Positions 579 to 21,105 of a stretch of DNA of 24,331 nt are shown here, piece by piece; position 1 is the first letter of the stretch; the number at the start of each line of letters is the position of its first letter. The DNA is from Candidatus Adlerbacteria bacterium. Lineage in GTDB: Bacteria; Patescibacteriota; Minisyncoccia; Phycocordibacterales; SBAW01. Under the pieces are notes generated by a model. It had not been told where the DNA came from and ran no database searches. It saw only the letters and a list, made by a program, of their open reading frames with translations. Position numbers and translations under genes: made by a program. The stretch is from assembly GCA_043784715.1 (NCBI GenBank), contig JAYVXZ010000029.1, positions 1 through 24,331 of the forward strand, in the 5' to 3' direction.

Positions 579-2615
579 ATGCTCATTTCCCGAAACTGGC
601 TACAGACTTTTTTTTGTGATGATCTACCCGGTGCAGAGGAGTTGGAGCATGCGCTCATGTTCCATGCCTTCGAAATAGACGGTATCGAACAAAAAGGAAG
701 TGATTATATTTTAGATGTAAAAATAACGCCTAATCGCGGCCACGACTGCTTGAGTCATGCAGGTATTGCGAAGGAGATTTCGGCAATACTCAAACTTCCA
801 CTAAAATCCAACCCGTACGCAGCAACTGCTTCAGAAGATACTTTAGTAGCGTTAAGAACGGTCCCAGCGGATAAAGTATCTTCTGAAGCGGGGGCCGTGT
901 CTGATTTGGTGGGGACGGACGAAACATTTAATTTCTCCGCTGCAGGACATCAAGGGGACGCTGCGAAATCAAATGTTTCGTCCGTCCCTACTGCGGATGT
1001 TGTAGTGTCTATCGATACAGACCTTTGTTCGCGTTACGTTGCAGCGCATATTAAAGGTATTAAAGTTGGGCCTTCGCCGGATTGGCTCCGCGAGCATCTG
1101 GAGTCCGTGGGCCAGCGCTCTATTAACAATGTGGTGGACGCGACGAATTACATCATGTTCCACTTGGGTCAGCCGCTCCATGCTTTTGATGCAAGTAAAC
1201 TTGTTCAAAAAGAAGGAAAGTATGCTGTCTCGGTCCGTCCAGCGAAAGTTAGCGAGAAGATGCTTGCGCTGGATGAAAAAGAGTATGCACTCAATGAATC
1301 TATGCTGGTGATAGCTGACGCAAACGCCGACCGTGCAATAGGTATCGCGGGGGTTAAAGGCGGCATGCCGGCGGGGATAACCGAGGCAACAACGGACATC
1401 ATCATAGAGTCCGCAAATTTCGACGGCGTCTCGACGCGAAAGACCGCACAGGCTTTAAAACTTCGCACTGACGCATCTGCGCGATTCGAGCAAGTCATTT
1501 CGCCCGAGCTTGCAATGTGTGGCATGCACGCTGTGGTAAATATGATCCTCGATTTGGCAGGTGGCGAATTGCAGGGGATTGTCGACGTGTACCCCAACCC
1601 GCAGGAAAAGAAAACGGCGTCGGTGACGGTTGATAAAATAAACAAAATGCTGGGTATAATGCTCACCGGTGCGGAGGTTGCCAACGTGTTCCAGCGACTC
1701 GGGTTTGCCTACAAAGAGGTAGGCGGCATGTTCGAAGTTATGGTGCCCTTTGAAAGGCTCGACCTGGAGATAGCCGAAGACTTAGTGGAAGAGGTGGGGC
1801 GCATTGTTGGCTACGATCGCGTTTTGCCGATTGAGCTGCCGCCTTTGAACCAACCTATCGAAGTAAATAAGAACTTTTATTGGTCAGAGAAAATACGTGA
1901 GTTTTTGACTGTGCGAGGTTTTTCAGAAGTTTTTACTTCGGTATTTGCTGAAGAAGGCGAGCGTGTAGTGCTCAATAAAGTCGACGGCGTTAAGCCGCAC
2001 ATGCGCACCCAACTTGGACGAGGACTTATTAATGCGCTTACAAATAATAAACGCAACAAGGAATTTCTAGGTTTACAAAGAATACAGATATTTGAAATAG
2101 GAACAGTTTGGGTTAATGGAAAAGAAAAAATTACGCTAGGACTGGCGGTAGAAAATAAAAAAGGTGAAAAAAATGCAATTGGTACTCTTCTCGATCTTGA
2201 ACAGTCCTTAGGTGCTAATGTTTCCGAAAAAGATGGTGATCCTAGTATTCGTGAATGTTACCTAGATGATTTAACCCAAGGACTTCCTGAACCAAGTCAA
2301 TATAGCGATTTGCCGCTTTCACTCACTGAGCGCTATGAACTCTATTCAAAATATCCTTATATTGTCCGTGATGTGGCATTTTGGACTCCAATGGGAACTG
2401 ATGAAAAACACATCGAACAAACGATAAAAACTGAAGCGGGGGATTTATGCATCAAAATCTCGCGCTTTGACCGGTTCGATAAAGACGGCAAAATCTCACT
2501 CGCATACCGCCTCATCTTCCAATCCTTTGACCGCACGCTCGTCGAGACGGAAGTAAATACTCAAATGGAAAAAGTCTACGCGAAACTGAAGGCCGAAGGG
2601 TTCGAAATCCGCTAA
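579..2615 (+). CDS. pheT: Phenylalanine--tRNA ligase beta subunit (short type lacking the tRNA-binding OB domain), with a ~55-aa insertion
   Basis: Starts 2 nt after pheS. ITPNRGHDCLSH, INNVVDATNYIM..GQPLHAFD, LRTDASARFE, DLVEEVGRIVGY and C-terminal FDX-ACB (YPYIVRDVAF...SLAYRLIFQ) motifs. Confidence 0.97.
   Translation: MLISRNWLQTFFCDDLPGAEELEHALMFHAFEIDGIEQKGSDYILDVKITPNRGHDCLSHAGIAKEISAILKLPLKSNPYAATASEDTLVALRTVPADKVSSEAGAVSDLVGTDETFNFSAAGHQGDAAKSNVSSVPTADVVVSIDTDLCSRYVAAHIKGIKVGPSPDWLREHLESVGQRSINNVVDATNYIMFHLGQPLHAFDASKLVQKEGKYAVSVRPAKVSEKMLALDEKEYALNESMLVIADANADRAIGIAGVKGGMPAGITEATTDIIIESANFDGVSTRKTAQALKLRTDASARFEQVISPELAMCGMHAVVNMILDLAGGELQGIVDVYPNPQEKKTASVTVDKINKMLGIMLTGAEVANVFQRLGFAYKEVGGMFEVMVPFERLDLEIAEDLVEEVGRIVGYDRVLPIELPPLNQPIEVNKNFYWSEKIREFLTVRGFSEVFTSVFAEEGERVVLNKVDGVKPHMRTQLGRGLINALTNNKRNKEFLGLQRIQIFEIGTVWVNGKEKITLGLAVENKKGEKNAIGTLLDLEQSLGANVSEKDGDPSIRECYLDDLTQGLPEPSQYSDLPLSLTERYELYSKYPYIVRDVAFWTPMGTDEKHIEQTIKTEAGDLCIKISRFDRFDKDGKISLAYRLIFQSFDRTLVETEVNTQMEKVYAKLKAEGFEIR
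828..889. repeat. Perfect 18-bp inverted repeat inside pheT
   Basis: gcttcagaagatacttta (828-845) / taaagtatcttctgaagc (872-889), 26-nt loop. Confidence 0.95.
909..991. repeat. 21-bp inverted repeat (one G-T pair) inside pheT, stem extendable inward
   Basis: gtggggacggacgaaacattt (909-929) / aaatgtttcgtccgtccctac (971-991), then atttc/gaaat after one mismatch. Confidence 0.95.
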
Positions 2616-17814: not shown

Positions 17815-20800
17815 TTACAACGCCTTGAGAGCATCTGCAACGATGGAGTATTCGCCGTTGCGGTTATTAAGTTTGCCTTTGAGCACGATACAGGACTCAA
17901 CGCGGATGATATCTTTGTGGGTCGCGTAGTCTTTTGGGAAGACGACTGCCTCGATAGAGCCGTCGAAGTCTGCAAGCTTGATAAAAGCCATTTGGTCACC
18001 CTTCTTGGTAAGTATCACGCGCACGTTCTCAATCATCCCGCCGGTGATGGTCACCATGCCCGGCTTCACGCGTGCCTTGAGTTGGCCGAGCGTCATGTTG
18101 CGCTTAGCTAGGCGCTCTTTAAATTTGTCCAACGGGTGTCCCGAGACGTATAACCCAAGCAGCTCCTTTTCCCATAAAAGCCGCTGGTCCATGGTCGCTT
18201 CCGGTGCGATAGGCAACAGTAAGTCGGCAGGCCCACTGTCGACGCCGGCAAAAAGAGAATCTTGTGAAGCGTCTTTACCCGCGTCGCGATGATACTGCAG
18301 CAACAACTCGATAGAGTGCTGCATAGTGCCGCGCTCGCCGAGCGAGTCGAGCGCCCCACATTGTATGAGCGCCTCCAACCCTTTTTTGTTGAGGCTTTGC
18401 CCCGACACGCGCGAAAGGAAGTCGGCGAGCGAAATAAAAGGACCGTTCAATTGTCGCTCAGCGATGATAGAGTCGGCTATGCCTGTGCCAAAGTTTTTAA
18501 TCGAATAGAGCCCAAAGCGAATCGCCGAGGAGGCAGGAACAAAAGTTTCCTGGACAAAATAGTCTGGCCCGCTTGGATGCAAAGTATCCCTGACAGGAGA
18601 CTCGAGGACTTTTTGGGAGGGAAACTTTTGTTCCTGCCCTGTCACGACAGTAAAGTCGCCAAAACTCTCATTAATGTCCGGCGAAAGGATAGGCACATTC
18701 ATGCGCTTACACTCGGCAACCATAATCGAAATTGTTTCGATGTCGCCCGACTCGGCGGTAAGTACGGCGGTCATGTACTCGACGGGGTAGTTGGCTTTGA
18801 GGTACGCGGTTTGGTAGGCGACACGGCCATAGCTCGCGGAGTGCGCCTTGTTGAAGCCGTATGCGGCGAACGGTTCTATCCACGCCCACACTTCGTGCGC
18901 TTTTTTTGGCGACCAGTTGGAATGGTGGATGCAGCCCTCGATAAACTTCTCTTTTTGCTTTGCCATTTCCTCGGGGATTTTTTTACCGACGGCTTTGCGG
19001 AACTTGTCGACTTCGCCCCAGGTGTATCCAGCAATTTGGTTGGCCATCATCAAGAGGTCATCTTGGTAGACGAGCACGCCGTAGGTTTGCTTAAGTATCG
19101 GCTCGATGGCCGGGTCGAGGTAGGAGATAAGAAAGGAGTTGTGCTTACGCTTAATGTAGTCGGGGATGAACTGCATAGGGCCCGGGCGGTAGAGCGCCAC
19201 CATAGCGTTGATGTCGTGAATGGTGGTGGGCTTGAGGTCGATGAGCCACTTGGTCATGCCGGCGCCGTTAAGCTGGAAGGTGCCTTCAGTCTCGCCGCGC
19301 GCCAGCATCTCGAAGGTTTTCTTGTCGTTCATGGGGATGTCTTCGATATCGACTTTAACGCCGAGAATTTTCTCGATGAGGCCGACCGCACTCGCGAGGA
19401 TGGTGAGGTTTCGGATACCAAGAAAGTCGAATTTGGTTAGGCCAACACCGTCTTCGCCGACAGAGTACATGTCGTACTGCGTGATTATCTTGCCGCCTTT
19501 GGGGTCGAGCTGGAGTGGCGCATATTCGACAAGCGGGTTTGGAGAAATAACCACACCTGCGGCATGGACGCCCACGTGGCGCGCGCAGCCCTCAATTTTT
19601 TTGCCGAGGTCGATTATTTCGCGCGTCTCTTCCTCGTTGTTGTACATCTTTGCGAGCTCAGTGTTTTCGGCCAACGCGCGGTCGAGCGTCATAGGGAAGC
19701 CTTGCTGGCCGAAAGGAATTTCTTTGGCTAAGCGGTCGCCCAGGCCGTATGGATAGCGAAGGGCGCGCGCCACGTCGCGGACGACACCGCGCGCGAGCAT
19801 GGTGCCAAAAGTGCCTATTTGCGCGACGTGGTCGGCGCCATATTTTTCGCGGGCATAGTTGATAACCTCTTCGCGCCTGTCGTCGGCGAAGTCCATGTCG
19901 ATGTCGGGGGCCGACGGGCGCTCCGGGTTGAGGAAGCGCTCGAAGGGGATCTTATATTCAAGCGGGTCAATTTTTGTTATTTGCAAAAGATAGGTGGTCA
20001 TCGAGCCGGCGACCGAACCGCGAATGTTGGAGTAGATATTATTTTCGCGCGAAAAGCGAATGAGGTCCTCCACTACCAGGAAATACATCGCGTACCCTTT
20101 GAAGGCAATAATGCCGAGTTCATAGTCGAGTCGCTCAAGCACTTCGGGTTTGCCCACAAGCTCGCGCGCATGCATGCCGACCATGCACAGCTCGCGCAAG
20201 ACGTCGTCGGCAGTTTTGCCGGGTGGAAGTGGGAAGGTAGGGAAGACGAATGTGCCGAGCACTAACTCGACAGTGCAGCGGTCGGAAATTTTTACAGAAT
20301 TTTCAAGTGCTTCCGGATAGAGCTCGAACAGCTCAGCCATTTCAGCCGCGCCGCGAAAGGCGTAGTCTTCTTCCATTGGATTTTCCTCGACAGCCTGAGG
20401 GTCTCCTATTTTGCGCAAGGTTTGCCACGCCAGACGGTCGTCGCGGTCTATATAGTATGTCTCTTGGCTCGCAACGAGCGGTATGTCGTGCTTCTTTGCG
20501 AACGCCGTTAGCACTTCGACCGTTTGCTCATGACCGTCGAGCTCTTCGTGCATCGAGAGTTCCAAAAATAAATTCTCTTTACCAAAAATACTCAAGTAGT
20601 CGCTCAGTGTGCGCTGTGCTTTTTCTTCGTCACGAGCGCGCAGCGCTGCCGGAATTTCGCCATGTAAACAGGGTACGACTGCAATTAATCCTGCTGCATG
20701 TTCGCGCAGCGTATCGCGCGTCATCGTGGCGCGACCCTCGTGCTCGGTCGTATAGGACTTGGTGACTAATTTCAAAAGGTTGCGATAGCCTGCGTCATTT

Positions 20801-21045
20801 TCGGCATACAACAAAAGCCGCGCATCGTCGGGCAAAAACGCCTCGATGCCAATGATAGGTTTGACGTCGTATTTGCGACAGACGTCTATAAACTCAATAG
20901 CCCCGTAGAGGTTGCCTAGGTCCGTCAAAGCGAGCGCCGTGCAGCCCTGCGCCTTGGCCGCCTTTACCAAGTCAGGCAACTTCGGCAGCGCCTGCAGTAG
21001 CGAGTAGTGGGAGTGGATATGGAGTGGGGTAAATCGCGCAGACAT
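17815..21045 (-). CDS. dnaE: DNA polymerase III alpha subunit
   Basis: PHP (LHIHSHYSLL), RGSVAGS, FERFLNPERPSAPDIDMDF, KFDFLG, YGFNKAHS and a C-terminal OB fold. The start is placed at MSARF, 6 nt after TATAAT. Confidence 0.97.
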   Translation of the reverse strand: MSARFTPLHIHSHYSLLQALPKLPDLVKAAKAQGCTALALTDLGNLYGAIEFIDVCRKYDVKPIIGIEAFLPDDARLLLYAENDAGYRNLLKLVTKSYTTEHEGRATMTRDTLREHAAGLIAVVPCLHGEIPAALRARDEEKAQRTLSDYLSIFGKENLFLELSMHEELDGHEQTVEVLTAFAKKHDIPLVASQETYYIDRDDRLAWQTLRKIGDPQAVEENPMEEDYAFRGAAEMAELFELYPEALENSVKISDRCTVELVLGTFVFPTFPLPPGKTADDVLRELCMVGMHARELVGKPEVLERLDYELGIIAFKGYAMYFLVVEDLIRFSRENNIYSNIRGSVAGSMTTYLLQITKIDPLEYKIPFERFLNPERPSAPDIDMDFADDRREEVINYAREKYGADHVAQIGTFGTMLARGVVRDVARALRYPYGLGDRLAKEIPFGQQGFPMTLDRALAENTELAKMYNNEEETREIIDLGKKIEGCARHVGVHAAGVVISPNPLVEYAPLQLDPKGGKIITQYDMYSVGEDGVGLTKFDFLGIRNLTILASAVGLIEKILGVKVDIEDIPMNDKKTFEMLARGETEGTFQLNGAGMTKWLIDLKPTTIHDINAMVALYRPGPMQFIPDYIKRKHNSFLISYLDPAIEPILKQTYGVLVYQDDLLMMANQIAGYTWGEVDKFRKAVGKKIPEEMAKQKEKFIEGCIHHSNWSPKKAHEVWAWIEPFAAYGFNKAHSASYGRVAYQTAYLKANYPVEYMTAVLTAESGDIETISIMVAECKRMNVPILSPDINESFGDFTVVTGQEQKFPSQKVLESPVRDTLHPSGPDYFVQETFVPASSAIRFGLYSIKNFGTGIADSIIAERQLNGPFISLADFLSRVSGQSLNKKGLEALIQCGALDSLGERGTMQHSIELLLQYHRDAGKDASQDSLFAGVDSGPADLLLPIAPEATMDQRLLWEKELLGLYVSGHPLDKFKERLAKRNMTLGQLKARVKPGMVTITGGMIENVRVILTKKGDQMAFIKLADFDGSIEAVVFPKDYATHKDIIRVESCIVLKGKLNNRNGEYSIVADALKAL
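18532..18638. repeat. Perfect 19-bp inverted repeat forming an in-frame insertion in dnaE
   Basis: ggcaggaacaaaagtttcc (18532-18550) / ggaaacttttgttcctgcc (18620-18638), with inner caaaa..agtc / gactttttg pairing. Confidence 0.95.
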
Positions 21046-21051
21046 GTAGCG

Positions 21052-21105
21052 ATTATACCGCATCTGAGTTTAAAATTTCTTTGTGGGACTCGTCCGGACT
21101 ATTAT
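21052..21105. promoter_or_regulatory. Divergent -10 elements for dnaE and rnhB, each 6 nt before the ATG (probably leaderless)
   Basis: Minus strand TATAAT-cgctac-ATG; plus strand TATTAT-atgtaa-ATG. Confidence 0.6.

Follow-up and report, generated by a model that had tools for sequence, protein, structure and literature searches.

In-frame hairpins in pheT as probable members of a palindromic DNA element family in one genus of Candidatus Adlerbacteria

Most documented cases of selfish DNA that is translated within essential genes come from Rickettsia and Wolbachia. As far as the summary in PMC10969869 reaches, the Rickettsia palindromic elements (RPE) are dispersed palindromic repeats that lie in frame in housekeeping genes of a reduced genome and are read through at tolerated positions; they are ~100-150 bp long, have a conserved family sequence and encoded peptide, and occur as copies common to related species (PMC10969869, summarising Ogata et al. 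2000, 2002). Here, we examine two adjacent hairpins that lie in frame in pheT, the gene for the phenylalanyl-tRNA synthetase beta chain, in a window of 24,331 nucleotides (the whole stretch of DNA analysed; contig JAYVXZ010000029.1 of assembly GCA_043784715.1, forward strand) from Candidatus Adlerbacteria, a member of the candidate phyla radiation (CPR). With a probability of roughly 70%, we read these hairpins as copies of a non-autonomous family of palindromic DNA elements of one Candidatus Adlerbacteria genus. Like RPE, the Adlerbacteria element is dispersed, palindromic, in frame in unrelated housekeeping genes and common to related species. It differs in its length of ~73 nt, in the conservation of the loop only, on a stem that is specific to each copy, in its occurrence in both orientations and in its host phylum, Patescibacteria. 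It has no sequence relation to RPE, from which it is set apart by size, phylum and architecture as described and not by direct alignment. Judged by analogy, the closest known behaviour is that of RPE, of which the Adlerbacteria family is not a member; the Rickettsia parallel drawn in an initial annotation of the locus, made from the sequence alone, holds for the behaviour and not for the sequence. A literature search found no publication describing translated in-gene palindromic elements in Patescibacteria.

Other described systems share single traits with the element. Miniature inverted-repeat transposable elements (MITE) are likewise small, non-coding, dispersed, equipped with inverted repeats and sometimes fused in frame to genes, but the Adlerbacteria element comes without a detected target-site duplication, conserved terminal inverted repeats or an identified autonomous transposon. 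The label MITE-like in the initial annotation therefore calls for a qualification: neither a parent transposon nor a target-site duplication was found, and what is conserved is the loop and not the inverted repeats. Nick-site hairpins of HUH Rep proteins and relaxases and ssoA-type origins possess a conserved loop motif, function on one strand and are located at plasmid or virus origins beside a Rep gene. The Adlerbacteria loop is similarly conserved on a stem of free sequence and bears a one-strand signature, but its copies are many, chromosomal and inside genes, and no cognate protein was identified. In some loops, TAGCGT or CAGCGT is present on the folding strand, and these six bases would resemble the CS-6 motif of ssoA. 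Integron attC sites have R and L boxes at the stem base and extrahelical bases, whereas the conserved part of the Adlerbacteria element is the loop and not the stem base. Repetitive extragenic palindromic (REP) sequences and REPIN, including GTAG- and CGTC-tagged REPs, are mobilised by REP-associated tyrosine transposases (RAYT) of the Y1 HUH type (PMC3733652). REPs are extragenic and of high copy number, with conserved stems, variable loops and a 5' tag outside the stem, whereas the Adlerbacteria copies are intragenic, number 1-15 per genome and combine variable stems with a conserved loop. Both are short hairpin repeats, strand-specific recognition of single-stranded DNA (ssDNA) would fit the mismatch asymmetry described below, and pairs of opposite orientation recall BIME or REPIN doublets.

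The two hairpins of the window (Table 1) are located in the linker between the N-terminal domain and the B3/4 domain of PheT, orthologues of which are present in 40 of 41 related genomes. In about 20 element-free orthologues, drawn from this genus and others of the order, this linker comprises 13 residues and has no such segment, in agreement with the initial description of a normally short linker. Subtraction of both hairpins (69 + 72 nt) leaves a linker of exactly 13 residues with a sequence similar to that of the orthologues. As removal of the whole hairpins restores the ancestral linker, both arms of both hairpins are added DNA, which bears out the proposed insertion of an element into pheT. 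The remnant AVSDLVG between the insertions aligns with the linker core of element-free orthologues, e.g., KPELVPA. Of the approximately 55 extra residues originally counted, a stretch of 54 residues does exist, but only 47 of them (83-105 and 113-136) are additional and the other seven belong to the original linker. The first stem was correctly given as 18 perfect base pairs. The second, given as 21 bp with one G-T pair at 909-991, is indeed a hairpin but measures 24 bp (912-988), and its sole non-Watson-Crick position is A·C on the plus (mRNA) strand and G·T on the minus strand. The palindromes read from the letters are also evident in RNA folding: the fold of positions 815-1005 (191 nt) has an energy of -90.6 kcal/mol, as compared to -54.0 ± 4.4 for shuffles (z = -8.3, with none of 200 shuffles as good). 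Partial complementarity (38 nt, 76%) continues past hairpin 1 into the host flanks.

At the protein level, the insert is predicted to form a flexible excursion where extra sequence is tolerated. In an AlphaFold2 model based on a 56-sequence alignment, residues 82-132 have predicted local distance difference test (pLDDT) values <50 and no secondary structure, whereas the flanking domains reach 80-94. Pfam did not find a tRNA_bind/OB (B2) domain in the PheT encoded at 579-2615, which is of a ~600-aa PheT type, and the linker with the hairpins is presumably the place where canonical PheT carries B2. A second variable segment, approximately residues 530-572, is unalignable with most orthologues and has no hairpin signature.

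The genome is a fragmented metagenome-assembled genome (MAG) of 133 contigs and 84% completeness, and palindromes can arise from chimeric reads, so that the hairpins might be an artefact of assembly or binning. However, Logan contigs assembled from two runs of what is probably the source sample reproduce positions 600-1300 without difference; they constitute a second assembly and not an independent sample. Both hairpins also occur, at the corresponding place in pheT, in an ENA assembly of a different project, and the same architecture is found in frame in dozens of MAGs from different studies. The probability of an artefact is close to negligible.

Within this 815-kb genome the element has 14 copies, 13 recognized by a covariance model and one variant in dnaE, which confirms the dispersed copies expected from the initial annotation. 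BLAST of the pheT region against its own genome retrieves elsewhere only the loops, each between a long stem of different sequence. Ten copies were well aligned (alignment A1), and RNAalifold found compensatory changes in 22 of the 23 pairs of this alignment; 91.9% of the cells are paired, as compared to 62.5% in 500 shuffles, none of which attained this share, and to 36-50% with a displaced partner column. The family unit is ~70-75 nt long (roughly 73 nt), with a conserved asymmetric loop of ~30 nt and a flanking stem of ~20 bp that is copy-specific in sequence but paired. The apical loop, in which there are two boxes containing CTGCAG, is closed by an inner helix of 3 bp that co-varies among the loop classes (CGC/GCG, ACC/GGT, AGC/GCT), of which classes I, II and III are common to several genomes. 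Inner stem positions are conserved and outer positions variable, arm identity between copies is ~0.55, and left arms at unrelated sites have a common GCAGAAA-type consensus. In pheT, the model matches element copy 1 at 824-893 on the minus strand, opposite to the gene (57.6 bits; loop class III, type A), and copy 2 at 914-986 on the plus strand, in the orientation of pheT (82.3 bits; loop class I, reading SAAGHQGDAAK). The loop of copy 1 is identical over 24 nt with that of the uvrB copy on contig C130, and copy 2 has loop relatives on contigs C130, C38, C6 and C95. As the orthologues lack a conserved segment of the same length, related hairpins occur elsewhere in the genome and a second assembly reproduces the sequence, the interpretation offered in the initial annotation is supported.

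Table 1. Features of the window related to the hairpins in pheT and dnaE
Feature	Positions	Strand	Basis or remark
pheT, phenylalanyl-tRNA synthetase beta chain, 678 aa	579-2615	+	open reading frame; Pfam B3_4 (residues 150-328), B5, FDX-ACB, tRNA_synthFbeta
Element copy 1 (hairpin 1), 69-nt in-frame insertion, residues 83-105	825-893	-	orthologue-alignment edges
Hairpin 1, left arm, 18 nt	828-845		perfect complement of 872-889
Hairpin 1, loop, 26 nt	846-871		inverted in closest relative (L134)
Hairpin 1, right arm, 18 nt	872-889		18 bp perfect with 828-845
Remnant of original B1 to B3/4 linker, AVSDLVG, residues 106-112, between both insertions	894-914	+	orthologue alignment
Element copy 2 (hairpin 2), 72-nt in-frame insertion, residues 113-136	915-986	+	orthologue-alignment edges
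Hairpin 2, left arm, 24 nt	912-935		pairs with 965-988 except at one position
Hairpin 2, conserved asymmetric loop, 29 nt, two CTGCAG-containing boxes	936-964		family alignments A1, A3
Hairpin 2, right arm, 24 nt	965-988		pairs with 912-935
Variant hairpin in dnaE (17818-21069, -), 19-bp stem, 69-nt loop, in frame	18532-18638		inverted repeat, fold z = -5.0, Pfam DnaE

The host genes of the genome, as identified by Pfam, have unrelated functions. Single copies in host orientation are located in the genes for UvrB, ATP synthase gamma (AtpG), PNPase and ArgS, and a single copy in the opposite orientation is in that for Tgt. PheT, trigger factor and an ABC-type ATPase have two copies each, one in the same and one in the opposite orientation, and two copies lie between genes, one of them upstream of rplK and the other where two genes converge. 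Adjacent pairs of opposite orientation as in pheT are present in the trigger factor and ABC ATPase genes, and they also occur in several other genomes. The dnaE variant scores below the threshold of the covariance model; a canonical copy is located at the same DnaE site in species G019, and the start of the variant's loop resembles a variant loop of another genus (CCTGGACAA..ATAG). In one trigger-factor copy (contig C78, locus L014, 906-1011) the loop is expanded by ~39 nt between the conserved boxes and still in frame, which shows that the middle of the loop tolerates extra sequence. A PstI-like restriction-modification system as an explanation of the CTGCAG boxes was rejected, as genomic CTGCAG is neither avoided nor enriched (309 observed vs. 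295 expected). Genome-wide concerted evolution of the loops was likewise dismissed, with mean loop identity being 0.70 both within and between genomes.

Beyond this genome, the covariance model has matches in 26 of 80 species genomes of the genus. Of 16 other genera of the order that were sampled, only one has the family, in the form of a divergent, mostly intergenic variant. An exact-pattern scan of 185,579 species genomes returned 59 loci, among which full hairpins remained after rescoring with the model only in contigs of this genus; matches in other phyla were loop-only chance matches of ~26 bits. The family is confined to one Candidatus Adlerbacteria genus, except for the divergent variant in one other genus. 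The family alignment A3 contains 85 elements, 76 from the genus, and all but one of these 76 lie inside open frames of at least 200 aa. Fifty-two of the 75 are in host orientation and nearly always read ..SAAGxQGDA(A/S)E..; the remaining 23 are opposite to the host and mostly read ..AASPxSPAAE.. or ..PLDDLQR...

The near-constant frame of host-oriented copies might indicate that a peptide module, ..SAAGxQGDAAE.., is selected at the protein level and that the DNA palindrome is incidental. Yet the loop does not vary at third codon positions (GCT GCA .. CAA GGG GAC GCT), whereas four-fold sites of the flanking genes in the same species pairs are saturated, with an identity of 0.22-0.40. Invariant synonymous sites amid saturated flanks indicate conservation at the level of nucleotides and not of the peptide. 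In addition, in a third of the copies the other strand is the one that is read, giving a different peptide, disorder is predicted for the insert, and constancy of frame is expected from avoidance of stop codons alone. Selection for a peptide module is thus highly improbable.

The relation between loop and stem is apparent from a close relative (P0003, locus L134), in which PheT is 79% identical over residues 1-260 and both hairpins are at the same places. Two compensatory double changes, one from T-A to G-C and one from C-G to T-A, distinguish its stems from those in the window. Loop 1 of this relative is the reverse complement of loop 1 of the window at 24 of 26 positions, i.e., this loop has turned around while the stem stayed as it was. 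In hairpin 2, only 5 of the 48 arm positions differ, yet the loop has changed from class I to class III and agrees at 24 of 26 positions with loops of class III from another species. The hairpins are hence inherited vertically but undergo turnover, in which a stem can persist while its loop is inverted or exchanged. In more distant relatives, the linker contains either one element or degraded remnants that bear HQGG or PQGDG motifs.

Mismatches in the stems reveal which strand is under constraint. We defined the (+) strand of the element as the one that reads TCCGCTGCAGG..GGGGACGCTGCAGA and tallied isolated non-Watson-Crick stem positions on this strand, which are A·C in 53 cases, C·T in 15, G·T in 12, C·C in four and A·G in three. 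On the (-) strand, the A·C, C·T and C·C positions become stable G·T, G·A and G·G, whereas G·T of the (+) strand becomes A·C. The bias is equal in both orientations (39:11 for copies co-oriented with the host, 14:1 for opposite copies), and after removal of near-duplicate orthologues it is seen in 33 elements vs. 4 (sign test p = 1e-6). The (-) strand also folds better by a mean of 2.25 kcal/mol (49 vs. 27, p = 6e-5). The sole mismatch in hairpin 2 of pheT follows this family-wide pattern.

Strong covariation, conservation of the loop beyond synonymous saturation and stems of ~20 bp, which is the size of RNase III substrates, would also be compatible with mRNA structures that benefit the host, e.g., protein-binding or RNase III sites for stability or translation. 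As the bias follows the strand of the element and not host transcription, however, it argues against a function at the mRNA level, and in 52 of 75 copies the tolerated G·T and G·A mismatches are on the strand antisense to the mRNA. Inversion of loop 1 between close relatives, the intergenic location of some copies and the lack of elements in most orthologues and in 54 of 80 species likewise speak against such a function. A search of the locus against Rfam 15 yielded no family match, with best E-values of at least 1.6, far below the gathering scores. A beneficial mRNA structure is therefore very unlikely. The relevant molecule would rather be a single-stranded DNA hairpin, and a transcript of the element itself appears less likely.

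It is attractive to propose from these sequence patterns that the hairpin moves as ssDNA, as in REP/RAYT systems, IS200/IS605-type hairpins or rolling-circle nick sites. Copies that survive would be those that keep the frame, lack stop codons and sit in permissive surface loops. The inserts would be translated as Ala/Ser/Gly/Glu-rich, probably disordered peptides, and the hairpin constraint would act on one strand of the element whatever the direction of host transcription. A search for the locus among RNA runs gave no match.

The proposal of an alternative origin, in which hairpins are partly built on site, starts from the site-specific stems, which it would explain. An incoming loop, perhaps with a short inner stem, would use the host flank as one arm, and the other arm would be its back-to-front copy. 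At UvrB site 2, the filled genes of species G049 and G019 gain only 42-45 nt relative to the empty gene of G042 (SRAERESLES), and their left arms align with host residues; E. coli UvrB presumably has the same length as the empty gene at this site. Short-armed ArgS sequences (P0127, P0140) gain 39 nt, and the left arm AGVSEDS of P0127 aligns with host AGTSDA. Conserved inner and variable outer stem positions, as well as the complementarity that reaches from hairpin 1 into its flanks, also agree with building on site. In pheT, however, both arms of both hairpins are extra, and the copy model leaves ~15 residues unexplained. Gains of 63-87 nt in PNPase and of 69-81 nt in ArgS of G000 and G021 equal or exceed the length of a whole hairpin. 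Moreover, in view of the common consensus of the left arms, a host-like arm could be the remnant of a single arm or a target chosen by similarity. As the general origin of the hairpins, building on site is possible but doubtful; insertion of whole hairpins and copying of a flank may both exist as routes.

Returning to a mobile palindromic element family as the preferred reading, we note several observations that weigh against it. The same protein positions are filled across species with different stems, sometimes in opposite orientation: sites are shared with G021 in Tgt, ArgS, UvrB and PNPase, with G019 in PNPase and DnaE, with G013 in AtpG, and with G086, G091 and G070 in Tgt. At the sites in PNPase and PheT, the short form is clearly ancestral, some closer relatives are free of insertions, and PNPase of G008 and G020 contains one-arm remnants. 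The sharing of sites by non-sister species requires either old insertions followed by many clean or partial losses, or site-specific re-insertion. No target-site duplication was detected, as direct repeats of at least 5 nt at the hairpin borders number 4, vs. 3.5 expected, and no parent transposon was found. Every copy in the genome has its own stem, and hence nothing indicates a recent burst. In principle, a mutational bias linked to the element, and not selection, could account for the mismatch asymmetry. With regard to a mobilising enzyme, no RAYT-like gene of the genome is flanked by an element of the pheT type. Y1/RAYT genes are present in 20 of 26 element-positive vs. 29 of 54 element-negative genomes (p = 0.054, uncorrected for relatedness), and three genomes with 6-8 elements show no Y1 match. 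Furthermore, a RAYT-like gene on contig C129 (locus L224; 847-1509, minus strand) is flanked by three copies of a different palindrome, CTGTCAAACAC-nnn-GTGTTTGACAG (817-847, 1590-1618 and 1660-1688), a REPtron-like arrangement unrelated to the pheT element.

Three observations at individual sites touch on insertion and loss. The PNPase orthologue of G008 (G008:C1:254363-255511) contains one in-frame TAG and, where the element would lie, the short remnant SAEKSLSP. In G049, the RecJ site has a CTCCGC repeat that is inseparable from chance, as the empty allele is only 76% identical. In the ArgS linker of relatives (G021 L054; P0124, P0128, P0130, P0132, P0137), LER(S/T) is repeated two to three times beside the element; these repeats look like direct duplications of the host sequence downstream and may have been left by recurrent insertion or excision.

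The genome itself encodes four or five Y1 (HUH) transposase-like genes, classified by NCBIfam as REP-associated tyrosine transposases, one of them with 80.9 bits vs. a cut-off of 80 for NF047646. RAYT-like proteins, such as those encoded on contigs C33 and C92, are plausible actors on ssDNA hairpins, but as mobiliser of this family Y1/RAYT was set aside, being present yet not convincingly associated with the elements. More tentatively, and with rather low likelihood, the loop might be an exchangeable recognition cassette for a strand-specific ssDNA enzyme, either HUH-type, such as a relative of RAYT or Rep, or another. The stem would merely present the loop, and new hairpins would be seeded at the same surface loops across species, sometimes with the host flank as an arm. 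If true, this would amount to a protein-less, structure-guided 'homing' system inside CPR housekeeping genes.

Ultra-small CPR genomes would, according to the preferred reading of a mobile element family, tolerate elements within genes and perhaps recurrently acquire them at the same protein loops. This has a bearing on gene calling, orthology and comparisons of protein length in MAGs, and may account for some unexplained insertions in CPR proteins. The build of loop and stem, the strand signature and the inversion and swap of loops offer a testable handle on how such elements move and persist.

Some contigs with full hairpins bear submitter labels of Saccharibacteria or Paceibacterota. Among them, CAZLHN01 and CAYRHY01 (loci L099, L118, L125 and L126), labelled Candidatus Saccharibacteria, match genomes G091 and G021 of the Adlerbacteria genus with the same hit position, and their Saccharibacteria label is probably wrong. 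In Logan runs X1 and X2, a 13.5-kb contig of higher depth from another organism contains a loop that corresponds to positions 932-968 of the window with 2 differences. Its arms (..CAGGAAAAGGAGT / ACTCCTTTTCCTG..) differ from those in pheT, and its loop points to a second carrier of the family in the same sediment.

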